This document shows positions 3,883 to 27,933 of a DNA stretch of 64,000 nucleotides, in pieces. Position numbers and translations under genes: made by a program. The stretch covers positions 1,312,001-1,376,000 of the forward strand of contig CAWCYI010000006.1 in NCBI GenBank assembly GCA_963799845.1, read 5' to 3'. Origin of the DNA: an uncultured Nitrososphaerota archaeon. GTDB taxonomy: Archaea > Thermoproteota > Nitrososphaeria > Nitrososphaerales > CADDZS01. The notes beneath the pieces are model-generated. The model did not search any database, was not told where the DNA came from, and saw nothing but the letters and a program-made list of their open reading frames with translations. How positions within the stretch are numbered: the first letter of the stretch is position 1; each line of letters begins with the position of its first letter.

Positions 3883-4826
3883 ATGTCACTCACTTTTGAA
3901 GGAGCAGAACACTGCTGGATGGATGGCCAGATCATTGATAACAAGAATGCAGTTTGCTCCGTCTTGAGCCCCACCCATCTTGGGATTTTTGAAGGGATAA
4001 GGGCCTACGCGCAGGGAGACATCATGAGTCAGAGTGGGAACATTGCGATATTCAGATGGAACGATCACGTCAAAAGATTATGGCGATCCGCTTCCGTTTC
4101 TTCCATAGAGATTCCAATGAGCAAAGAGCAGTTGCTTGATTATGTCAGAGATACCGTCCGATCAAACAATCTCAAAGGGAACTCGTACATCCAGCCCCGA
4201 ATTTGACCAAAGTATACAAAGTCGGCGGCATGTCAGAAAAGGACGTCCATGTTGTAATCCATGTGATGCCCATGAATACTCTATTGGATAATGGGAATTC
4301 CACATTCATGGACAAGCGCAGCCTACTTGTTTCATCTTGGAGAAGGATTGCCTCGGATGCGCTTCCACCGCAGAATAAGACTTTGGGGAATTACGCAAAC
4401 TCTCGTCTGGGGGAGAACGAAGCAAATCGACTTGGTTACTATGGTTGTCTTTTCTTGGACAACCGAGGATTTGTTTCAGAGGCGGGGTCTACATGCGTGA
4501 TGATGGTCAAGGACGGAGTTCTTTTCACTCCACCCGTCACTGCCTCTATTCTCGATAGCGTAACACGAGATTCTTTGATCACCCTTGCTAGGGAGGATCT
4601 CGGTATTAGGGTAGAAGAGAGAGACATTACTAGAGTCGAGCTTTACGGAATGGATGAGGTATTCCTTTGCGGAACGGGCGGTGAGATTCGCCCTGTTAGT
4701 AGCATAGACGACATACCGCTTGGCTCGGAGTACCCTGGCACAATTACCAAGAAAATTGCTACTCATTACGCGCAGGCCGTAACAGGGAATTTAGAGCATA
4801 GGTCAAACTGGCTCACACCACTGTAG
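3883..4826 (+). CDS. ilvE: Class IV (branched-chain) aminotransferase, split by frameshift near 4203
   Basis: GIFEGIRAY, FRWNDHVKRL, catalytic Lys in KTLGNY, GFVSEAGS, ILDSVTR, DEVFLCGTGGEIRPV. Confidence 0.85.
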
Positions 4827-4922
4827 TATTAGATGGCGATCCTCCTGCGAAAAATTGTAGTGTATCACGACTCTTCCATGGAGTACCTCCCGCAGTCATG
4901 CGAGCGGGAGAAAATTAGTCGC

Positions 4923-6047
4923 CTATTTAGACATAGTACTATGGCTTTGAGGTGATTCCATGACGGGTCTCTTCTGCTTTTGAAGCAATCTTACAGGATT
5001 TTCAACTAATGAGGAAATCGTCTCCTTGCTTGGTTCATCGTAGTTTGAGCAATGCATATGGACTACCTTCCAGCCTTGATTGGTTCGCTGGAAGATACAA
5101 GTCGACCTGTTTGATCTTTTATGATGATTTGCGGGAAAGTCGACATCGAATAACATTACAAAAGTGGCGTAAGCTACGTCTCCGTGAACGTGTACTTCGA
5201 GATCCTTCAAGCTTCGATTCTTCTTGAAAGAGGTTTGCTTTTCAAAATAACTTCGGGATTGTAATTCATCCCGACCAAGAGAGGGGAATATTGGTTCATC
5301 TGAATAACAGCTGAATTCTTTGCTGTGCAGCGATGTAGAGAAAGAATGGAAGTCCCTATTGTTGAGTCCTTCGATCAGGGTGAAGACAAGTTCACGAATT
5401 TCTTCCCGTTTAGTCGATCTTGTTCTCTTTTTTGTATTTCTTTTCCCATCGGAGCTCGGATACAGTCTCTGTAATTCTCTAACCCCCATTCCAGAGCTAA
5501 CGACTAATTTGGCGGTGTTCCATCTATCCTCGGCATCTTCAATCCTATTCAGAATTCTAGCATGATTTTCGGTGAGAAGTGACAAAACTCTCAATTGTTC
5601 GTCTCTTGGAGCAACTGAGTCAGAGAACAAATGAAGCATAGCGACGTGTTGTGACACAAACGCACGGGATCTACCGATGAGATCGCCTAATTGATCATAA
5701 CTGCTTCCAGTGGTTTTGTGCAACTTGTCCAAGATTAGTGCTTTTTCGTAATCCGTGAATCCTTTCCTGTCGACATTTTCTGAAAACGCCATCATTAACG
5801 CTTCAGAATCTGAAGCTTCTACAATGTTCGCATTTATCGACTTCCATCCCAATTTTTTGGCGGCTGATAATCTTCGGTATCCAAATATTAACTCAAATTC
5901 GAACGAAGTCGACTTGGAAGGCCTCACGAGGATGGGCGCAAGCTGTCCAAGCTTTGACAAGGATGTGTATAGATCGTCTGCTTCCGATTCGCTTTCAACT
6001 CGACTTTCTAAGAATGGACGTATAGATTCGACAGGAACCTCTAACAT
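4923..6047 (-). CDS. ParB/Srx CTPase domain + HTH + C-terminal SnoaL/NTF2-like domain fusion
   Basis: GQLAPILVRP, LIFGYRRLSAA (GxRR), SENVDR, HTH SYDQLGDLIGRSRAFVSQH, LTENHAR; C-terminus LNNRDF..DLEVHVHGDVAYA..RSTCIFQRTNQGWKVVHMHCS. Start ATG 6047 or TTG 6068. Confidence 0.85.
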   Translation of the reverse strand: MLEVPVESIRPFLESRVESESEADDLYTSLSKLGQLAPILVRPSKSTSFEFELIFGYRRLSAAKKLGWKSINANIVEASDSEALMMAFSENVDRKGFTDYEKALILDKLHKTTGSSYDQLGDLIGRSRAFVSQHVAMLHLFSDSVAPRDEQLRVLSLLTENHARILNRIEDAEDRWNTAKLVVSSGMGVRELQRLYPSSDGKRNTKKRTRSTKREEIRELVFTLIEGLNNRDFHSFSTSLHSKEFSCYSDEPIFPSLGRDELQSRSYFEKQTSFKKNRSLKDLEVHVHGDVAYATFVMLFDVDFPANHHKRSNRSTCIFQRTNQGWKVVHMHCSNYDEPSKETISSLVENPVRLLQKQKRPVMESPQSHSTMSK

Positions 6048-6087
6048 TACTTGTTTTTTGCGAGTCAATGCTTTTATTTATGTTGAT

Positions 6088-6105
6088 TGTTCACGCGCGT
6101 GAACA
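6088..6105. promoter_or_regulatory. Perfect 18-bp palindrome TGTTCACGCGCGTGAACA (parS-like operator)
   Basis: Lies in the divergent promoter between the ParB fusion and the MR/MLE gene, just upstream of an ATAAATAAAA TATA-like box on the - strand; near copy at 27916. Confidence 0.75.
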
Positions 6106-6244
6106 TGTATACTCTAATGGAATGTTCTCAAGTGTAAGATTAGATCTGATAACATGCTAAAGATTGACAATTATTTTCATCTTTATTTTATAACACAATC
6201 GATAGGAGCATTTTGCAATTCTTATCTAAATTCGTTTCCGTTTC

Positions 6245-7393
6245 GTGACTAGGGAGTTCATCCGTATGAAGATCAAAGAGGTTGAGGCAGTTGGAGTAGA
6301 ATGCAAGCTGGAGGGATTTATGCATCCTACTCGCAGATATCTATTGGCAAAAATTACCACTGACGACGGTCTTGTCGGATGGGGTCAATGTGGAACAACA
6401 GGAGCTCCAGAAGTAGCTCTAATGTTGCTTAACCGGCTCAGACCTTTACTAATCGGAGAAGATCCCTTCGACAGGCCGAAAATCTGGGAGAGTTGGCTAA
6501 ATTCTCCGCTTGCTACTCTATCAGAAGGACACAAGGGTGCAGAATCATTTGCAATTAGCGGCGTCGATATTGCTCTTTGGGATATACTAGGAAAGGCTTG
6601 CAACAAGCCCATTCACAAACTTATTGGCGGATTCCGTGATAAAATTCGGTTGTACGCAAGTCATGGTGATCCGGATAATTTTCAACTTTATCTCGACTAT
6701 GGATTCACAGGATTCAAAATTGGCATATCTCATCCTGGCATATTTCCAGGAAAAGTTGGAACTGCCGCTGAACTAGATGTCACGCTAAAGCAGCTAAGGG
6801 ACATAATTGGTTATAAGAATGATCTGATGGTAGACGCTTGGCAGGGATTCTCACTATCCGAGGCAATTCGAGTTGCAAAGGTCCTTGAAAAATACGAAAT
6901 TACATGGTTTGAGGAGCCTATCTTGTCTTATGATTTCGATGGTCTAGCAATCATTTCTCGAAGTACGACAGTTCCAATAGCTGCTGGGGAGCACCAATAC
7001 ATGAACAGAGAAGCTGCTGACCTGATTTTAAAGAGCGGGATTCAGCTAGTCCAGTGCGATCCTGTCAGCTGCGGTGGAATCTCAGAATCGTACAAGATTG
7101 CTTCTATAGCTCAATCAAGGGGAGTAAAATACCAGCCTCATTGCACTGAAACCCCTCTGAATTTTGCAGCTGTAATGCAAGTCATGGCTTCTACGCCTAA
7201 TTCGTTTCTCGCGGAGTGGCAGGTAGGTCATGGAATGGGAGTCAAGTATGGAGAAGAGCTTCCTCTCCGATGGGAATTAATCAAACAACCATTTTCGGTT
7301 CGAAATGGGTGGGTAGACGTTCCCAAAGGACCTGGTCTAGGAATTGAGATTGACGAAAAGGCACTAAGAAAATTTGAATGGAAGATTTTCTAG
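6245..7393 (+). CDS. Mandelate racemase/muconate lactonizing enzyme family protein
   Basis: AISGVDIALWDILGK, FKIG, LMVDAW, WFEEP, IAAGE, PH, PKGPGLGIE. Confidence 0.9.
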   Translation: MTREFIRMKIKEVEAVGVECKLEGFMHPTRRYLLAKITTDDGLVGWGQCGTTGAPEVALMLLNRLRPLLIGEDPFDRPKIWESWLNSPLATLSEGHKGAESFAISGVDIALWDILGKACNKPIHKLIGGFRDKIRLYASHGDPDNFQLYLDYGFTGFKIGISHPGIFPGKVGTAAELDVTLKQLRDIIGYKNDLMVDAWQGFSLSEAIRVAKVLEKYEITWFEEPILSYDFDGLAIISRSTTVPIAAGEHQYMNREAADLILKSGIQLVQCDPVSCGGISESYKIASIAQSRGVKYQPHCTETPLNFAAVMQVMASTPNSFLAEWQVGHGMGVKYGEELPLRWELIKQPFSVRNGWVDVPKGPGLGIEIDEKALRKFEWKIF

Positions 7394-7546
7394 GCAATCT
7401 GTTTATGAAGTATAAAGAAGAATCAAACTAATGATCTCAATTACATTTCTGAGTTTATTCACTTTTTTTGGAGGCAAGGTCGATCCAGAATAGACCTCGC
7501 TCCGAATTTTTTGTAAACCAAAAGTTTTCCGTGAGGGTTAGAGAAG

Positions 7547-9010
7547 TTGAAAACAAATTTCAAGTTCCGAATGTATGAGAAGCTTCAGAAGGAATATCCC
7601 GAGATAATTTCCGAAGCAAAGAGGGTGCCGGAGGAAATTGGAATGCCAGATTCTTTGAAAGGTAAGATAGGGCTTACTGGAGCAATTTCAGGCATGCCTC
7701 GTGTCCTCGGCAAGGATGTTAGAGATGCGATAGAAGTTGCGCATCGGCAACCCATGCCGTTAAGCGGTCTCGTCGACCAAATCCGGGAGTTGGTTAAGGG
7801 TTTTTACGGAGATGAATATGACGCAGTCCCGGCGAATACCTGCGAATCGGCACTCTGTCTATCTTTTGATGTACTTGCTGCTCCGCCAATGCAAGGCAGG
7901 GGAGATAACTATCGAACTAGATACGTTACACTTTACGAGAAGCATCTCTTCCATCAGGGAGCTTACGGGAGACCATTCCCTCCCAAATACAAGGATGTTT
8001 TTTCGGACGCGGGAGTAACTTCAGGAGAATTTTCTTCCGCAGGAAAGAGACTAAACAATCTCGATACAGTGGTTGTTCCGCTGATCGGAGCAAGATATGA
8101 TGTACATGGGATAAAGTATTGCCCCACTATGTTATTAGAAAATGTTGACGCTAAAGCCTCCGCAGAAAAGATCGCAGAAGTGGCAGATAGAAATTCAGCT
8201 TTCGTTTCCGCATTTTCTACTCTTACGATGGATACGCCGGGTTACGGACGGAGAGAGAAAGACAGCGCGGGCGCCTCGATCCTCGAGAAGATGATAAGCA
8301 AAGTCGCCCAAAGGTATGATGTTCCTTACATTACTGATAATGCAACTGGACTGCCCTTCATTGGTAACGATTTGAGAAAGACCGATTGTGACCTGATGCT
8401 ATACAGTATGGACAAGGACGCTCTGAGTCCGACGAGCGGATTGATCATCGGAAAAGAGGAGTATATGGTGCCTCTTCGTAAGGCAATGGGTTTCCACAGT
8501 AATCGTTACGGGACAATCTCTGCGTATGGTAAAGCCGCATATTCTTCATTCGATCCTGGGAAGACCGGCCTCGTGGGGCAAATTGCAGCCCTGAAGGCTC
8601 TCAGAGACAAGCGTTCGCTAATAATTAGGTGGACCGATAAAGTGTACGAGATAACTATGGAAGAATTTGCCAAGATTAATCCCAAACTTGGAAAGGGAAT
8701 CGAGGTTACAAAATCTTACAATTTTGGCGGAGTCGAAGTTAACTATGCAAAAACTTGGATAGACGGAGAAATTGGGATACCAATGTTCAGCAGCGAAGAC
8801 ATCTTCGCTGGCGTAGATCCTTTATTCAACGGGTTTTTGGAGATGGGAATAGGACCGACACCTGTTTCGAGCGGAAATTTTGTCGTAATGCCCGGGTTTG
8901 GAACCCTTGACGACACGTATGGTCTATTGGAGGAAAATATGAGATACGCCTTAAAAGCTATGGTTAAGATGCTTGAAATTATCAGCAAGCATGCGGGCAC
9001 GTTGGACTAG
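7547..9010 (+). CDS. Fold-type I PLP-dependent enzyme (SelA/DgaE-like, uncharacterised)
   Basis: VPYITDNA (PLP Asp), DLMLYSMDK (Schiff-base Lys), PTSGLIIGKEE. Confidence 0.65.
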   Translation: MKTNFKFRMYEKLQKEYPEIISEAKRVPEEIGMPDSLKGKIGLTGAISGMPRVLGKDVRDAIEVAHRQPMPLSGLVDQIRELVKGFYGDEYDAVPANTCESALCLSFDVLAAPPMQGRGDNYRTRYVTLYEKHLFHQGAYGRPFPPKYKDVFSDAGVTSGEFSSAGKRLNNLDTVVVPLIGARYDVHGIKYCPTMLLENVDAKASAEKIAEVADRNSAFVSAFSTLTMDTPGYGRREKDSAGASILEKMISKVAQRYDVPYITDNATGLPFIGNDLRKTDCDLMLYSMDKDALSPTSGLIIGKEEYMVPLRKAMGFHSNRYGTISAYGKAAYSSFDPGKTGLVGQIAALKALRDKRSLIIRWTDKVYEITMEEFAKINPKLGKGIEVTKSYNFGGVEVNYAKTWIDGEIGIPMFSSEDIFAGVDPLFNGFLEMGIGPTPVSSGNFVVMPGFGTLDDTYGLLEENMRYALKAMVKMLEIISKHAGTLD

Positions 9011-11574: not shown

Positions 11575-12069
11575 TCAAGTTTTTCCTAACCTCTTCTTTA
11601 ATAGTGGCATAATTCCTCCAGCTTCAAGAACATTGAGCATCACTGATGAGAGAGGCTTACTTTCCGATTGTTGACCGCTACTTAGGTTCTTGATAGTCCC
11701 CGTTGCAGGATCGATCTCGCCCTGATCTCCGTCATTGAAAAGTTTAGCAACTTCGGGGCAAATCACGATAGGTAGTCCTATCGCAATGCAGTTTCTAAAA
11801 AATATCCGTCCGGTGGACTCGGCAAGGATTCCACTAATCCCAAGCGCCTTAATGTTCTCAGGAGCAATTTCTCTGCTCGATCCGCATCCAAAATTTCTTC
11901 CCGCGACGATTAGATCGCCCGGTCTAACATTTTCAGGAAACTCAGGTCGAACTGATTTTAAGCAATACTTTTTGAATTCATTCGTAGGGAGTCCAACATA
12001 TATCCCAGGTGCCATCGCGTCAGTATCGATATTGTCTCCGAATTTCCATACTCTGCCACTAATTTGCAC
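11575..12069 (-). CDS. LeuD/HacB/DmdB-type hydratase small subunit
   Basis: GRVWKFGDNIDTD, GRNFGCGSSRE, RIFFRNCIAIG. Confidence 0.92.
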   Translation of the reverse strand: MQISGRVWKFGDNIDTDAMAPGIYVGLPTNEFKKYCLKSVRPEFPENVRPGDLIVAGRNFGCGSSREIAPENIKALGISGILAESTGRIFFRNCIAIGLPIVICPEVAKLFNDGDQGEIDPATGTIKNLSSGQQSESKPLSSVMLNVLEAGGIMPLLKKRLGKT

Positions 12070-13336
12070 GAAGGTACTCCCTCGGATCTGTGATTCTCCC
12101 TCTTATTGATGAAGCAGCAACGGTTGCAGGAGAAGCAAGGTATACTTCAGCCTCAGGACTTCCCATCCTGCCCTTGAAGTTCCTGTTTGAAGACGAGATG
12201 CATTTTTCTCCGGGTGCCAATACACCGTTGCAGCCACCCATGCACGGACCGCAAGATGAGTTGGTGACTACTGCACCGCTTTCGACAAAGATTTTGAGAA
12301 GCCCTTCGTCCATAGCTTTTAGATAAACATCCCATGAAGCGGGCGTAACGATCAAGCGAGTGCTTGAAGAGACTTTGTGGCCTTTCAATACTCTGGCAGC
12401 CGCCTCCAGATCCTCGTATCTTGCATTTGCACACGAACCAATGAAGGCTTGATCTACTGGGGTTCCTTGCAGCTCAGAAACGGGTTTTGAGTTGGCCAGT
12501 GAATGGGGCGCAGCTACGTACGGCTCCAAGTCGGAGACATCAACCGAGAACTTCGAATCGTAAGTTGCATCCTTGTCACTCTTCACGGGCTCAAATCGAT
12601 GGGTGGTTCTAGTGCTCAAATAATCTAGTATTTTGTCGTCAACCTCGAAGAGCCCAAATTTTGCACCTAACTCGATTGACATATTGCTCATAACCATTCT
12701 ACTCGCGAGTGTCATCTCGCCGACGCAAGGACCTCCCCATTCTATTGACTTGTATTGCGCCAACTCTATTCCATACCTCCCCGCGATGTACAAAATCAGG
12801 TCTTTAGAATAGACCGAATCTGGAAACTTTCCGGTGATATGAATCTTCACTGTACTAGGTACGGTAAACCACAACTCGCCAGTGGAGAGCACGTACGCCA
12901 TTTCCGAGTTTCCAATTCCCGCACCCGCAGCATTTAGAGCGCCATAGGTACAAGTGTGCGAGTCCGCTCCCAGAATCAAGCTTCCAGGAAGGACGTGACC
13001 CTTTTCCGTCAAAACTTGATGACAAATGCCAGCGTTAATATCGTAAAAGTGCCTGATTCCGTATCTTTCTGCCAATTTCCGCAGTATAGCGTGATAGTTT
13101 GCGGTAGTAACAGTGGGTGCAGCGGACCAATGGTCCAAAACCACGACGACTTTTTCAGGATCCCAGACTGATGGCAGGCCTTCGGGTAGTCCCTCTTTGA
13201 TAAGGGTTTGATGCATCATTGCAAAACCTTCGTGAATCATGACCAGGTCCACTTTGGCGGTCAAATGATCCCCTGGAGAAACATGTTTTTCTCCCGAAGC
13301 CCGCGCGAGAATTTTCTCGGCAATCGTCATGCTCAT
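12059..13336 (-). CDS. LeuC/HacA/DmdA-type [4Fe-4S] hydratase large subunit
   Basis: MTIAEKIL, DH, GICHQV, GADSHTCTYG, FIGSCAN, CGPCMG, SSNRNFKGRMG, YLASP. Confidence 0.93.
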   Translation of the reverse strand: MSMTIAEKILARASGEKHVSPGDHLTAKVDLVMIHEGFAMMHQTLIKEGLPEGLPSVWDPEKVVVVLDHWSAAPTVTTANYHAILRKLAERYGIRHFYDINAGICHQVLTEKGHVLPGSLILGADSHTCTYGALNAAGAGIGNSEMAYVLSTGELWFTVPSTVKIHITGKFPDSVYSKDLILYIAGRYGIELAQYKSIEWGGPCVGEMTLASRMVMSNMSIELGAKFGLFEVDDKILDYLSTRTTHRFEPVKSDKDATYDSKFSVDVSDLEPYVAAPHSLANSKPVSELQGTPVDQAFIGSCANARYEDLEAAARVLKGHKVSSSTRLIVTPASWDVYLKAMDEGLLKIFVESGAVVTNSSCGPCMGGCNGVLAPGEKCISSSNRNFKGRMGSPEAEVYLASPATVAASSIRGRITDPREYLRAN

Positions 13337-14637: not shown

Positions 14638-15993
14638 ATGTCAAGCCAAACGGAAACCGTGGCCTCATTTGTTGCCAGCCTTGATTACAAAAATATTCCA
14701 ACGAATATCGTGAATAATCTAAAGGCATCCATACTGGACACCCTTGGCAGTGGTATTTACGGATCCACGCTATCCTGGGTTAGATCTTTTTCAGATCTGG
14801 TCATGAATTGGAAAGGAAATGGTGAGGCAAGCGTCTGGGGGCGAGGTAGGAAATTACCTTCAATGAATGCTGCTTTCATAAACGGAACAATGGCCCATGC
14901 ATTCGAGCTAGACGATGCTCATAGAAATAGTGTAACTCATCCAGGCACAGTCGTTATTCCGGCCGTTCTCGCTATGGCAGAGTTGAAGGGAAATGTCGAT
15001 GGAAAAACATTCCTTACGGCGGTAACAGCCGGTTACGAAGTTATGTGCAGGGTAGGAATAGCTTTGGGTGTTTCTCACAGGCTTCGAGGATTTCATCCAA
15101 CTGGGACTTGTGGCGTATTCGGAAGCGCTTCTGGAGCCGCGAAAATCCTAGGATTAGACGAAGAAAGAACAATTTGTGCTTTATCGATAGCCGGCACGGA
15201 GGCATCTGGTCTATACAACCCTTCACTGGTAAAGAGATTGAATGCTGGAAGGGCGGCACAGACAGGAATCATGGCGGCACTGCTGGCTCAGTCGGGTCTT
15301 AGTGGCACGAAAGATGTCTTGGAAGCACCGCACGGAGGATTTTGCAGGGGTTTTTCTGACAACCCCGACATCGGGAGGCTGGTAACCGATTTAGGAAAGT
15401 CATTCGAGGCAGGCAACGTGTCACTGAAACCATATTCGTGTGATGCAGGAAATTGTAGAACTATAGACGCGGTAAAAAAGGCGATCGAGGGGCACGAAAT
15501 CGCTCCAGAATCAATAGAAAAAATTGTAGTCAAAACAAGCACTCAAAACAAAGAATTCAGCTATGGCTTCAAAGTAGACAGCGTTTCTTCGGCAATGATG
15601 AGTCTGCCTTATTGCGTTGCAGTTTTTCTCATTGAGAAGAATGCCTTTCTTGACCAATTCACTGAGAAGAAAATCCGCGATTCGAATATACTTAGTCTCT
15701 CTAAGAGGGTAGAGGTAATGGCGGATCCGGAAATTGACCGTCAAATGATGTCAGACCCAACTCGCCCAGTGAACGTTCATGTCGAAATTAAGTTGACTGA
15801 TGGAAAAAGTTTCAGCAGTAGTGTAATGCATTCCAAGGGAAGCCCGATGAACCCGATGTCCCCTCGAGAAATCAGAGACAAATTTACGAAACTGGCATCG
15901 TACGTCCTCGACAAAAACAAGATAGAGTTCATTATTTCGACTGTAGAAGACCTCGAAGAACTTAGTTGTGTTGACCAAATCGTTCCAGAATGA
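14638..15993 (+). CDS. MmgE/PrpD family protein
   Basis: NGTMAHAFELDDAH, HPG, GYEV, GFHPT, KRLNAG, KPYSC, KGSPMNPMS. Confidence 0.92.
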   Translation: MSSQTETVASFVASLDYKNIPTNIVNNLKASILDTLGSGIYGSTLSWVRSFSDLVMNWKGNGEASVWGRGRKLPSMNAAFINGTMAHAFELDDAHRNSVTHPGTVVIPAVLAMAELKGNVDGKTFLTAVTAGYEVMCRVGIALGVSHRLRGFHPTGTCGVFGSASGAAKILGLDEERTICALSIAGTEASGLYNPSLVKRLNAGRAAQTGIMAALLAQSGLSGTKDVLEAPHGGFCRGFSDNPDIGRLVTDLGKSFEAGNVSLKPYSCDAGNCRTIDAVKKAIEGHEIAPESIEKIVVKTSTQNKEFSYGFKVDSVSSAMMSLPYCVAVFLIEKNAFLDQFTEKKIRDSNILSLSKRVEVMADPEIDRQMMSDPTRPVNVHVEIKLTDGKSFSSSVMHSKGSPMNPMSPREIRDKFTKLASYVLDKNKIEFIISTVEDLEELSCVDQIVPE

Positions 15994-16028: not shown

Positions 16029-17410
16029 TCAGTTTTTTTCGATAATCAGTTCAGTAATATCAGTGATTCTTTCAATAGATTCAAGATGATTTATCAATTT
16101 CAAAATCTCTTCGCTTTGCATACCGGTAGTGTTTTCTTGAAACTTTGATGTCAGTTCATTCGTACTTAGCGGATTGTTGGGACCCCCGATAGCCTGATCC
16201 ACCCTCGAGCTTACTGAATTCCCGTCTCGAAAGGTTATTGATACCTCAGCTGGAGAATATGGGATTCCATCCATTTGTCGATCCGCTTCAACATGAATCG
16301 TTTTTGCCAGTTCAAGTACTGGCCTTCTTCGGATTGCAGAATCAGAAAAACTCTGAATCGACATATTGCCATCGATCAAGATTGTCGAGATGCAGAAGTA
16401 AAGACTCTGTTGGGCTTCAAGGGGTGTCAATGGATTCATTCTCTGCTCCTCTGGATCGGCTACGTCCTTGAAAGTTAGACTCGGAACATGAACGGACATA
16501 GTCTCCACCATATCAGGTTCGAAATCGTATTTCCTACGTAGCTCGAGGACCGCATCGATTGAGGCATGACACCCCCGACAACATGGATATTTTTTGAAAA
16601 TAGTGTCCAGAATGGCGTAACTTTCAGCCAGCCCGTTAGTTATTATCGTGTCGTCATAATGATCGGAAAAGCTCGTAAAAATCCATCGCGACCCTCGAAA
16701 ATAGTTCTCGGTCCAGAAAGACCCCTCGCTGCTAGTTGAGCTGAAGAGATACCATCATGAGCAGCTTTTCCCGGATGTAGTCGTTTGACTGGGGACCCAT
16801 CAGCTAAGAATTCTTGAATCCCTGATGCATGACTTCCGGCTAGCCCCAGAGCATCAGCAATTTGTTCACTATCAAGACCCATAATCACAGACGCTGCAGC
16901 AGCAGCGCCAAATGGACCACATGTAGATGTAGGGTGGAAGCCACGAAAGACGTGACTACGATAAGGCTGGGGATTAACCGCCCGCGAGACACGGATCATC
17001 ACTTCATAACCAGCTACGATTGCAACAATCAAATCTCTGCCATTTGCTTGCGAGGCTTCCGCGGTGGCAATAGCGGATGGAACAATTACAGCTCCAGGAT
17101 GAAGCATTGATCTTTCGGCGTCATCATATTCCCAAGCGTGAGCAAAAGAACCATTCGCATAGGCGGCATTTTGTGGCAAAGTTTTGAAATCATTCTTATA
17201 AATAGAAGATTGCTCGGTACCGCCTAACGATCTAACATAATCTGCGATGATTTTACTCCAAGGGGCCTCTGCTCCCGCGATTGCCACGCCTATAGTGTCC
17301 ATTAAACAAAGTTTGGCTTGTTTTATTATCGGAGCTGGCAGTTTATCGTACTGGAGATCGGTAACAAATTCAGCGAGTTTCATTGAAGAGGATTTCATCG
17401 CTTGGCTCAC
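16029..17410 (-). CDS. Second MmgE/PrpD family protein, frameshift near 16660
   Basis: HAWEYDD, HPG, GFHPT, KRLHPG, then KKYPCC..HASID and GGPNNPLS in the next frame. Confidence 0.85.
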
Positions 17411-17544: not shown

Positions 17545-18042
17545 TCAAATAATATTTTTTTCCTGCAAACGTGAAATAAGTAGTGGAACTATGCCACCTT
17601 GATCCAACATTCGAACTAGATCAGGGGGAAGCGGCTTTGTGGATAGAGTTTTTCCAGTAGTCAGGTTCCTAATTTTACCAGTAGATATTTCAGCTTCTAT
17701 TGTGTCACCTTCATTGAATATTGAAGTCACACCCTTGCAAGGTACAGCGGGCAACCCAATTGCCATGCAGTTTCTGAAATAAATTCTGGCGATTGAATCT
17801 GCGAAAATTGCCCTAATGCCAAGCTCCTTAAGAAAGCTGCAGGCCTGCTCTCTCTGAGAACCACAGCCAAAGTTGGTGCCCGCAACTATTACATCGTTCT
17901 CCCTGACTTCTTGATAGAAATTTGGCCTTATAGCACCGAATAATGCTTTCTTGAGGTCTTTATCGGCCGTCTCAATGGGTGCAATAACGGTCGTGTCGAT
18001 ATTGTCACCGAACTTCAGAACTCTGCCCACTATTGTGCCCAA
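17545..18042 (-). CDS. LeuD/HacB-type small subunit (copy 2)
   Basis: GDNIDT, NFGCGSQRE, RIYFRN. Confidence 0.9.
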   Translation of the reverse strand: MGTIVGRVLKFGDNIDTTVIAPIETADKDLKKALFGAIRPNFYQEVRENDVIVAGTNFGCGSQREQACSFLKELGIRAIFADSIARIYFRNCMAIGLPAVPCKGVTSIFNEGDTIEAEISTGKIRNLTTGKTLSTKPLPPDLVRMLDQGGIVPLLISRLQEKNII

Positions 18043-19309
18043 TTACACCACATCCCTTGGATCCGTTATGACACCACGTAATGCAGAGGCAGCAACAGTT
18101 GCAGGTGAGGCTAGGTATATCTTAGCATCATAGCTACCCATTCTTCCCTTGAAATTTCTTGGTGTTGCAGCAATGCATACTTCTCCTTTAGCCAACGCGC
18201 CCGCGCTCCCTATGCATACCCCGCACCCAGGATTAGTGATAATAGCTCCAGATTTCGCAAGTTTGTAGATCAAGCCCGCGGCGAGAGCTTTCTCATAAAC
18301 TTCCGCTGATGCAGAACCGACGATGAATCTTGTTCCAGGATGTACTCTCTTTCCTTCTACTATTTGCGCAGCAATTTCCAAATCTTCAAAGCGACCGTTG
18401 GTGCAAGATCCGATTACGGCCTGATCTATAGGTACCCCTTTTATTTCAGAAATTGGTTTTACATTACCGACGGTATCTGGACAAGCTACCTGCGGTTCGA
18501 TTCCCGAAACGTCTATATCGTATTCCTCTTCGAATACTGCGCCAGAATCTGAACGCACAGGGGTAATAGGTTTTTGAACTCTTGATCTCAGAAAATCATT
18601 GGTCTTTTCATCCGCCTCGAAGAGTCCGAATTTGGCTCCAAGCTCGACAGACATATTGCTCATCGTCATTCTACTGTCAATACTCAGGCTTGTAGCAAGG
18701 GGTCCGTCCCATTCGATTGATTTGTATTGCGCCACCTCGGTACCAAATGAACCAGCAATGTGAAGCATGATATCCTTAGCGTAAACAAATGGGGAAAGCG
18801 TTCCGTTGAGCATGAACCTTATAGTTTCGGGTACTCTGAACCAAAGTTCTCCTGTTCCGAGGACGTATGCCATCTCGGTGGCTCCTATTCCCGTCCCCGC
18901 TGCGTTGAAAGCGCCATAGGTGGTAGAATGAGAATCTTTGCCAACTATCAATTGTCCAGGGGTTACATGGCCTTTCTCAGGAAGGACTTGATGGGAGATT
19001 CCTGCATCAATATCGTAAAAGTAGGTTAATCCATATTTCTTGGCTAGTTCTCGATTATTGCGATACCTTTCAGCTGCGGCTACGGAAATGGTGGGACTAC
19101 GATGATCGAGTACCACTATCACTTTGTCTTTATCCCATACGCTTGTTAGTCCCTGCTTATACCCCGCGCTGACCAGAACGTCGCTGGGCTCGTTCAAAAC
19201 CTCTGGGACCATTGCCAGATCTATCTTCAGCTGTTACGATGTCGCCAGCTTCTGCAGTCTCTTTACCCGAGCATCGCGCGAGGATTTTTTCGGCAATCGT
19301 CATTTCCAT
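18043..19309 (-). CDS. LeuC/HacA-type large subunit (copy 2), N-terminal frameshift
   Basis: MEMTIAEKILAR from 19309 in another frame; DH, GKDSHSTTYG, IGSCTNGR, CGVCIG, RNFKGRMG. Confidence 0.88.
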
Positions 19310-27915: not shown

Positions 27916-27933
27916 TGTTCACGCGCGTGACAC
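27916..27933. promoter_or_regulatory. Second copy of the parS-like palindrome (TGTTCACGCGCGTGAcac)
   Basis: First 15 bp identical to 6088-6102; lies in the divergent region between the ABC operon and the LLM operon; flanked by partial half-sites TGTTCGACGC (27901) and TGTCACG (27942). Confidence 0.7.

Follow-up and report, generated by a model that had tools for sequence, protein, structure and literature searches.

A ParB-derived protein with an NTF2-fold tail and a parS-like palindrome at its promoter: a probable site-specific regulator from Nitrososphaeria

The gene studied here lies on the minus strand of a 64,000-nt stretch of DNA (the window, C6:1312001-1376000) from an uncultured Nitrososphaerota archaeon of soil, the genome of which is assembled into 9 contigs (4.6 Mb, 86.7% complete). 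Its product joins the ParB_N and helix-turn-helix (HTH; HTH_ParB) domains of the ParB proteins to a C-terminal domain of the NTF2 fold, and a perfect 18-bp palindrome with parS-like half-sites stands at its promoter. We believe that its product is a ParB-derived regulator that binds DNA at a specific site and acts by the mechanism proposed here, a reading to which we would give a probability of about 0.6. It draws on the domain architecture, on operators that are conserved in the family and covary with the recognition helix, on the lack of ParA and on the metabolic context of the genes; binding itself, the sign of the regulation, dimerisation via the tail and nucleotide binding are predicted.

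According to this mechanism, the two HTH_ParB domains of a dimer would each read one arm of the palindrome, much as ParB reads parS, and, because the site abuts the TFB-recognition element (BRE)/TATA region of its own promoter, the protein would be expected to control its own transcription. The divergent metabolic gene or genes would probably be controlled too, and possibly a transporter promoter 21.8 kb away. The NTF2/CaMKII-hub-like domain would replace the canonical C-terminal dimerisation domain of ParB and hold the chains together, and the ParB_N domain would still bind a nucleotide, probably CTP. Since two residues tied to hydrolysis have been lost, a slowly cycling or locked switch is likelier than a normal ParB CTPase. 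The features on which the analysis is based are as follows.

4923..6068, minus strand: open reading frame (ORF), 381-aa reading (P0001)
4923..6047, minus strand: gene for the 374-aa ParB_N + HTH_ParB + NTF2-fold protein (P0002); stop codon at 4923-4925, ATG at 6047 taken as start
5772..5999, minus strand: ParB_N (nucleoside triphosphate (NTP)-binding) domain, P0002 residues 17-92, with S29, G34, G56-Y-R58-R59, E90-N91 and R94
5463..5747, minus strand: ParB-type HTH DNA-binding domain, residues 101-195; the recognition helix contains RSRAFVSQHVAMLH
5403..5462, minus strand: basic linker SSDGKRNTKKRTRSTKRE..., residues 196-215, low model confidence
5043..5408, minus strand: C-terminal NTF2-fold domain (SnoaL_3/CaMKII-hub-like), residues 214-335
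6071..6081, minus strand: TATA-like A/T box ATAAATAAAAG, 24 nt upstream of the ATG at 6047
6088..6105, no strand: perfect 18-bp palindrome TGTTCACGCGCGTGAACA, predicted operator, 6 nt upstream of the TATA-like box

Gene and domain architecture

The ATG at 6047 is most likely the start codon, and the 374-aa reading from it is identical to the database protein P0002. The TTG at 6068 is an unlikely start, since just 3 nt separate it from the TATA-like box. This box is read as a promoter element on the basis of archaeal promoter geometry, and the transcript would then be nearly leaderless.

Pfam placed ParB_N at residues 24-99 of P0001 (7.9e-12; 45.5 bits, cut-off 26.3) and HTH_ParB at residues 108-202 (3.7e-9; 37.1 bits, cut-off 22.6), followed by two overlapping matches of the NTF2 clan on residues 221-342, SnoaL_3 (5.4e-11; 43.3 bits, cut-off 22) and CaMKII_AD (7.8e-11; 42.7 bits, cut-off 22.1). 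NCBIfam TIGR00180 (parB_part, ParB/RepB/Spo0J) scored 98.8 bits against a cut-off of 58.45. The ParB motifs, which read GQLAPILVR, GYRR and ENVDR in the translation, are as intact as the preliminary description, made from the sequence without database searches, had held them to be, and the HTH that it named is present. The canonical C-terminal dimerisation domain of ParB (PF23552), present in more distant ParBs, was absent from the Pfam matches of P0001. The best sequence matches were Caulobacter ParB (1.3e-17) and Noc (2.3e-16). An AlphaFold2 (AF2) model of the full-length protein had a predicted local distance difference test (pLDDT) score of 85.7, with a disordered basic linker that fell below 50 at residues 202-209; Foldseek matched its N-terminal part to Noc, ParB, Spo0J and KorB (E 3e-13 to 6e-9) and its C-terminal part to CaMKII hubs.

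The palindrome and its covariation with the recognition helix

A perfect palindrome just upstream of a TATA-like box had also been described, and it is exact, with a gap of 6 nt to the box. It is the sole perfect palindrome of the window with arms of at least 8 bp, and one of 30 in the 4.6-Mb genome with arms of at least 9 bp; the chance of finding one of the latter in the 200 nt upstream of this gene is, by arithmetic, about 1e-3. In 100 shuffles of the window, sequences with at most 3 mismatches to it occurred at a mean of 0.03 per shuffle. A terminator hairpin was ruled out as an explanation, given that the palindrome is upstream of both divergent genes.

For the comparison across the family, 57 loci with near-full-length matches were taken from 4 + 25 + 48 loci. 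Those left out were L020 (in-frame TAG), the distant L042-L047 (Bathyarchaeota and bacteria), and the partial or N-terminal-only L021, L033, L037, L039, L066, L086-L088, L090 and L092-L095. Of the 57, L075 and L091 were set aside for want of an intact ORF. A further twelve (L019, L036, L059, L062, L063, L067, L077, L079, L080, L082, L084 and L089) were removed as near-identical, with an identity of at least 90%, and the dereplicated set consisted of 43 loci plus the window. The palindrome count omitted L054, for which the sequence upstream of the gene is shorter than 150 nt.

Of the 42 family genes, 20 have a perfect palindrome (arms of 7 bp or more) in the 200 nt upstream, compared with 23 of the 242 other genes in these loci (Fisher p = 2.8e-8). 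In roughly half of the 23 control matches the palindrome is of the family type: some are the site of the family gene itself, counted again for its divergent neighbour, and others are distinct sites at promoters close by (L027, L051 and L085). The half-sites follow the recognition helix. Helix positions 133-134, which align with N178 and T179 of Caulobacter ParB, are Q/H-H in 24 members, and TTCAC-N4-GTGAA lies upstream of 14 of these and of none of the 20 others (p = 3.4e-5). Members with an L-H helix have TTTAC-CCGG-GTAAA (3/5), and those with N/S-Y have TATGC, TACGC or TTCGC arms (6/15). Among the 14 TTCAC sites, the preceding base is G in 9/9 members with R/K at position 128, and T or C in the 5 members with N/T/P/A at that position. 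In the alignment, position 128 is the equivalent of Caulobacter R173, which is reported to hydrogen-bond guanine 1 of parS (PMC7383237).

The specificity residues given for Caulobacter ParB are R173/T179/A184/G201 (PMC7383237). In a HMMER alignment with 6t1f they fall on R128/H134/H139/N161 of P0002 (chain numbering +10, the mapping being ours), so that the R/H/H/N reading made earlier by manual alignment is borne out. The Caulobacter DNA contacts G170, K171, S172 and R204 align with G125, R126, S127 and R164; S127 and R164 are invariant in the family, and position 126 is R/K among the closer relatives but variable in the divergent branch. Most loci have a single operator-like site. The covariation of half-site and recognition helix suggests direct, parS-like and mostly self-regulating binding, and the upstream palindrome is very probably the cognate site of the ParB-type protein.

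Three loci present family-type palindromes at promoters of genes 0.1-6 kb from the family gene (L085:7318-7333, L051:12008-12021 and L027:783-796), with none in the gene's own upstream region; these may be target operators rather than auto-operators. One Nitrososphaerales metagenome-assembled genome (MAG) has five paralogues (L023-L027), and TTCAC-type sites are present in three of these loci (L023, L024 and L027), each with its own four bases at the centre; the centre may thus help to keep paralogues apart.

The operator-like palindromes adjoin or overlap TATA-like boxes, in two arrangements. The K128 subgroup (8/8 members) has a TTTATTTAAG-like box first, then a gap of 2-5 nt and the palindrome, which reaches almost to the start codon; the order is the opposite, with the A/T-rich box after the palindrome, in the window and in L024, L049, L050, L052, L055 and L058. 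A protein bound at the K128-subgroup site would stand in the way of polymerase recruitment, and for these members we infer autorepression. At the window operator, the bound protein could either occlude transcription factor B (TFB) and the TATA-binding protein (TBP) or recruit them.

A near-copy of the palindrome occurs in the same window and is given here as a candidate only.

27916..27933, no strand: possible second site TGTTCACGCGCGTGACAC, its first 15 nt identical to TGTTCACGCGCGTGAACA

It is placed between two divergent units, a peptide/nickel-type ABC transporter operon (minus strand) and a gene for an F420-type luciferase-like oxidoreductase (plus strand). It is the one extra site of the genome within 3 mismatches of TGTTCACGCGCGTGAACA, where about 1.6 would be expected by arithmetic; since this count matches chance, the case for the second site rests on the 15 identical contiguous bases, the proximity and the intergenic position. 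The shorter TTCAC-N4-GTGAA occurs 6 times in the genome (about 4.4 expected, by arithmetic), GTTCAC-N4-GTGAAC once, and canonical parS was not found in a genome-wide search. These counts give no sign of a dispersed regulon.

The nucleotide site

In Caulobacter ParB, Ala/Ser mutants at S74, G79, R103, R104, N136 and R139 are reported to bind CTP weakly or not at all, Q58A and E135A to bind it without hydrolysis, and E102A to be a clamp-locked non-hydrolyser (PMC8367383). The first six positions align with S29, G34, R58, R59, N91 and R94 of the window protein, all of them invariant or nearly so in the family, as are G56 and E90, the latter aligned with E135. R16 probably stands for Caulobacter R60, which also counts among the residues needed to bind CTP and from which it is one column off in a gapped loop. 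The counterpart of Caulobacter Q58 is L13, the loop being shorter by two residues, and that of E102 is Y57; the latter position is N, H, Y or S and never E in 44/44 members, the variants of the box being GNRR, GHRR, GYRR or GSRR and never GERR. The replacement of the Q58 and E102 equivalents argues against a normal ParB hydrolysis cycle, and the alignment suggests that the ParB_N domain binds a nucleotide but hydrolyses it weakly or not at all. Aligned with Caulobacter ParB, the chain opens at residue 47, with 3 residues ahead of the first strand, and so is without a counterpart of the approximately 45-residue N-terminal tail of Caulobacter ParB.

The same site bears on a simpler explanation, namely that the protein is a plain palindrome-binding repressor in which ParB_N no longer depends on a nucleotide and serves in structure or oligomerisation, there being neither a switch nor a clamp. 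None of the 44 members examined has kept either the Q58 or the E102 equivalent, one operator per locus would suffice for a simple repressor, and 17/28 purified ParB-fold proteins are reported to be without NTP binding in vitro (10.1101/2025.10.10.680097). However, G56, R58, R59, E90, N91, R94, S29 and G34 have stayed invariant, or nearly so, in a family with an overall identity of about 40%, and in Caulobacter ParB it is by mutating these very positions that CTP binding is lost or reduced. This is hard to explain if no nucleotide is bound, and we regard a plain repressor as quite unlikely.

The C-terminal NTF2/hub-like tail

The SnoaL/NTF2 domain assigned to the C-terminus by the preliminary description is real as far as the fold is concerned, but in sequence and fold the domain is equally close to the CaMKII hub and to SnoaL_3. 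A tail-only AF2 model (pLDDT 85.1) gave an alpha+beta cone fold. Nearly all the structure matches listed for it were CaMKII hub domains, with template modelling (TM) scores of 0.75-0.83, E-values of 1e-9 to 2e-8 and identities of 19-25%; the unrelated NTF2-like protein 2rfr came at rank 39 among those listed. A sequence search agrees (CaMKII hub 2f86, 5.8e-6). W326, H330, H332 and S334 are invariant in the family and match the W...H-x-H-x-S strand motif of the CaMKII hub, and R314 is nearly invariant. Among the longer proteins listed as matches of a tail profile, 13/13 were ParB fusions, which is weak evidence given that at most 8000 candidates were covered; as a single-sequence query, the tail alone matched only itself.

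The CaMKII hub is an oligomerisation domain, described as a wedge-shaped dimer, as in other proteins of the NTF2 fold, with many interfacial histidines, and three cavity arginines are said to set true hubs apart (10.1101/536094). From strand alternation, the invariant residues of the tail would face away from the cavity, and the H330/H332 face would be the dimer interface. By default, then, we take the tail to be a dimerisation module, with ligand sensing left as its rival.

That rival has the protein work as a ligand-gated clamp, a metabolite in the NTF2 cavity controlling CTP-dependent loading, closure or sliding over the catabolic genes. It can draw on the fact that NTF2 folds often bind small molecules, the cavity of the CaMKII-alpha hub binding analogues of gamma-hydroxybutyrate (GHB) through His395, Arg433, Arg453 and Arg469 (10.1101/2025.01.19.633782). 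The tail also diverges faster than the rest of the protein (28% vs 45%), like the sensor domains of paralogous regulators, five paralogues stand in one MAG, the neighbours are catabolic enzymes and transporters, and the CTP-binding residues are kept, while the missing hydrolysis residues would allow for a different signal of release. But the four ligand contacts of the hub align with S, M, C317 and C333 in the window protein, and the three arginine positions are mostly hydrophobic or Trp in the relatives. Moreover, the invariant residues would lie on the sheet face opposite the cavity positions, as judged by strand alternation, and matches to the cavity-based families AtzH-like, DUF4440 and HpxZ stayed below their cut-offs. 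We think ligand gating possible, though doubtful. The preliminary description had seen the protein as an archaeal regulator of this kind; what survives of that view is a regulator that is encoded in metabolic clusters and has a parS-like operator as its cognate site, and the evidence on the tail leans toward dimerisation.

The likeness to hubs could be taken further, the tail building many-subunit rings and the resulting multivalent particle bridging or condensing DNA, for example at two sites 21.8 kb apart that bracket the gene cluster. The best structural matches are indeed ring-forming hubs of 12 to 16 subunits, a near-copy of the palindrome is present in the window, and algal and bacterial hub homologues are reported to assemble 14 to 20 subunits (10.1101/536094). 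On the other hand, ring-forming non-metazoan hubs are given there an identity of about 50%, far from the 19-25% of the tail. The three cavity arginines of true hubs are absent from it, and the number of extra sites in the genome is that expected by chance. NTF2-fold proteins are, besides, usually dimers. All this makes a ring-forming particle very unlikely. A bolder combination would be a one-component regulator in which a hydrolysis-deficient ParB clamp is CTP-locked on its parS-like operator, and either a metabolite in the hub-like tail opens the C-terminal gate, setting the clamp free, or a tail multimer bridges the two sites flanking the 21.8-kb cluster. This we consider unlikely; if true, a single DNA clamp would bring together the state of the nucleotide and that of the nutrients.

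Several points weigh against the dimeric, promoter-bound ParB-derived regulator that we favour. That homologues would have the palindrome upstream, as previously proposed, held for the 20 genes above but not for 22/42, which are without an upstream palindrome with arms of at least 7 bp; L065 and L074 are start-codon misplacements, and most of the others are unexplained. The Fisher tests overstate significance because the loci are related, although the evidence all runs in one direction. The window operator, being upstream of the TATA box, fits activation as well as repression. As to the tail, H330/H332 were placed at an interface by strand alternation and with the help of a paper in which the two residues are not named, and the tail evolves fastest, with a mean pairwise identity of 28% against 45% and 44% for the other two domains. 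Such variability fits a loosely constrained dimeriser and also a diversifying, effector-sensing domain. Nucleotide specificity, finally, is stated not to be predictable from sequence (10.1101/2025.10.10.680097).

Family, neighbourhoods and absence of ParA

All three Pfam domains were carried by 42/45 of the best matches among 5.8 billion proteins. An exhaustive profile search yielded 169 representatives (50% identity) at E <= 1e-30, and by our count the profile covers both the ParB part and the tail in 85 of the 150 representatives listed. The family is almost confined to Nitrososphaeria records, its named relatives being Nitrososphaerales or Nitrososphaeria MAGs. At E <= 1e-30 a family protein was present in 4/400 other genomes of the class, and in 0/223 and 0/78 genomes of the two largest and best-sampled families.

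Within two genes of a family member, the 43 dereplicated loci contain 124 ORFs, mainly for enzymes and transporters. The Pfam families most often found among them are class-III aminotransferases (10), short-chain dehydrogenases (8), ABC permeases (6), family-5 solute-binding proteins (5), M24 proteins with Creatinase_N (5), zinc alcohol dehydrogenases (4), aldehyde:ferredoxin oxidoreductases (3) and AstE/AspA proteins (3). The neighbouring M24 genes cluster with the window's own M24 genes. No ParA-type family and no TFIIB, conjugation or integrase family was among the 25 families listed for the 124 neighbours, and the called ORFs of 55 loci showed no deviant Walker A motif of the ParA type. 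In the source genome, nothing exceeded the cut-off of PF13614 genome-wide (within its 86.7% completeness), and the single match of the CbiA family (C6:133264-133917) is 1.18 Mb from the window. The absence of parA noted at the outset for the window thus extends to the assembled part of the genome, and the three-domain relatives do lie, as had been suggested, in metabolic and transport neighbourhoods, with no ParA seen at the 43 loci.

These neighbourhoods bear on one more explanation, that the protein serves in partition by binding a centromere, organises the chromosome, or is a ParB encoded by an integrated conjugative element (ICE). Its strong similarity to chromosomal ParB and Noc and its parS-like half-sites would fit, and thaumarchaeal ICEs are reported to encode ParB-like proteins beside TFIIB homologues (PMC6563490). 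This TFIIB context was not seen in the family, however, whose neighbours are enzymes and transporters and whose operators sit on core promoters. The protein is also without a ParA partner, a ParA-activating N-terminal peptide and the canonical C-terminal dimerisation domain, and several paralogues with different operators can occur in one genome. We therefore hold such a role to be extremely improbable.

Two further homologues, L075:3916-5485 and L091:6001-7594, are near-identical and spread 345 query residues over about 1,570-1,590 nt with no intact ORF, for which the possible causes are inserted DNA, an intervening element and frameshifts within the coding sequence. The homologue in L020 (G051:C96) has one in-frame TAG inside the match. 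The source genome has 8 ParB_N matches overall and no ParA. Three of them are ParB_N + HTH_ParB proteins of 294-324 aa (C6:1725856-1726761, C6:1288586-1289560 and C6:1212222-1213106) that share a tail (...LIGKRY..H..ID..I...) matching no Pfam family, and their upstream regions had no clear palindrome comparable to that of the window gene. Another, at C4:1977992-1979293, has ParB_N fused to an N6_N4 DNA methylase.

Comparison with known systems

ParB-derived regulators of transcription include KorB, VirB (PMC10770331) and DndB-like proteins (10.1101/2025.10.10.680097). KorB of plasmid RK2 is like the window protein in its ParB_N and HTH domains, it has palindromic operators at promoters and controls transcription, as is predicted for the window protein, and Foldseek matched it at E 3e-9 to 6e-9 (8qa8/8qa9). 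KorB, however, is plasmid-borne, has ParA (IncC) and KorA as partners, acts at many operators and has a different C-terminal dimerisation domain, whereas the window protein is archaeal and chromosomal, is without ParA, usually has one operator per locus and carries an NTF2-fold tail. VirB of Shigella, a CTP-switch anti-silencer, is likewise derived from ParB, loads at a specific site and acts on transcription and not on segregation (PMC10770331); unlike the family, it counteracts H-NS on a virulence plasmid, has no tail domain in common with it and has no known role at archaeal promoters.

With chromosomal ParB/Spo0J and Noc, the window protein has in common the framework of DNA contacts, the TTCAC/GTGAA core of the half-sites and the CTP-binding residues. 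The window site is TGTTCAC-GCGC-GTGAACA, against TGTTTCAC-GTGAAACA for consensus parS (PMC7383237); it keeps the G...CAC logic, with one T fewer and a GC-rich centre of four bases between the CAC/GTG cores. R173 and G201 are given as absolutely conserved in ParB orthologues (PMC7383237), but G201 is N in the window protein, and Q58 and E102 are replaced. The window protein further differs from ParB/Spo0J/Noc in being without the ParA peptide, the PF23552 tail and a membrane helix. Since there is no ParA, no N-terminal peptide and no PF23552 tail, it is not a canonical segregation ParB.

As for the tail, the CaMKII hub is the nearest solved fold and has the W...H-x-H-x-S motif in common with it, but the tail is not a true CaMKII hub, since the cavity arginines are absent, and it is fused to a DNA-binding protein instead of a kinase. 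Extracytoplasmic function (ECF) sigma factors with SnoaL_2, such as sigma-J of M. tuberculosis, also have a C-terminal NTF2 fold on a transcription factor, where it modulates promoter recognition (PMC5766207); unlike the family, these are bacterial, are built on a sigma-2/sigma-4 scaffold and belong to a different NTF2 subfamily.

Kaljevic et al. (2025) describe archaeal fusions of the ParB-CTPase and HTH domains as scattered and rarely accompanied by ParA, with a role in segregation unlikely (10.1101/2025.10.10.680097). The main text of that work does not contain SnoaL, NTF2, DUF4440, CaMKII, Thaumarchae- or Nitrososphaer- and gives no operator or function; its supplements may list SnoaL_3. 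Full-text literature searches returned no description of a ParB-NTF2 fusion or of its operators, in keeping with the preliminary statement that none was known. We thus place the protein among the ParB-derived regulators of the KorB/VirB kind, with a fusion and operators previously undescribed in the literature searched.

ParB-fold CTP switches are a young field, and as to what the many orphan archaeal ParB-HTH proteins do, the family offers a testable answer: they would be promoter-bound regulators with operators readable from the genome. To our knowledge, few transcription factors of Nitrososphaeria have a predicted operator, and those of the family adjoin genes for using organic compounds, the lineages concerned not belonging to either of the two families with the best sampling in the class. 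The recognition code (helix positions 128, 133 and 134 against half-site bases) extends the ParB/Noc specificity rules, and the swap of the dimerisation domain for an NTF2/CaMKII-hub-like fold should be of use to the ParB field. With hydrolysis residues lost and binding residues kept, the protein would represent a natural "E102-type" variant for the study of clamp locking.

Genes around the locus

The intergenic region that contains the palindrome is common to the ParB-type gene and its divergent neighbour.

6245..7393, plus strand: enolase-superfamily (MR_MLE) acid-sugar-dehydratase-like gene, 208 bits, below the equivalog cut-off of 311

The palindrome is 140 nt from the start of this ORF. 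Of the promoter shared with catabolic genes that was proposed before, the common intergenic region was borne out but not the promoter itself; we infer that the enolase-superfamily gene is a candidate co-regulated target. Between the two palindromic sites lie this gene, an ORF of 487 aa, two M24 creatinase/prolidase-like genes, two LeuC/LeuD-like pairs, an isopropylmalate/tartrate-dehydrogenase-like gene, PrpD/MmgE-like genes and genes for a UbiD decarboxylase, an isochorismatase and an ABC transporter, for which "catabolic" is a fair label. The 487-aa ORF (7547-9010, plus strand), downstream of the enolase-superfamily gene, had no Pfam match and a weak one to a DgaE/SelA-related pyridoxal phosphate (PLP) enzyme (28 bits, cut-off 385). 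For positions 4700-7400 of the window, the sequencing runs listed were of soil and bioreactor DNA, with no RNA run among them.

Four genes of the window look split into pairs of adjacent ORFs: a class-IV aminotransferase (3883-4206/4203-4826), a PrpD/MmgE gene (16029-16511/16643-17410), a family-5 solute-binding protein (25808-26521/26547-27605) and a xylose-isomerase-like TIM barrel (29293-29844/29849-30187). Genuine frameshifts, decay into pseudogenes and assembly errors of the indel type are all conceivable causes. The LeuC/LeuD-like (homoaconitase-family) sets at 11575-13336 and 17545-19212 and the PrpD/MmgE-like genes at 14638-15993 and 16029-17410 are all within 8 kb and adjoin the isopropylmalate/tartrate-dehydrogenase-like gene, and together the LeuC/LeuD and PrpD/MmgE genes possibly constitute a pathway for a substituted tricarboxylate.

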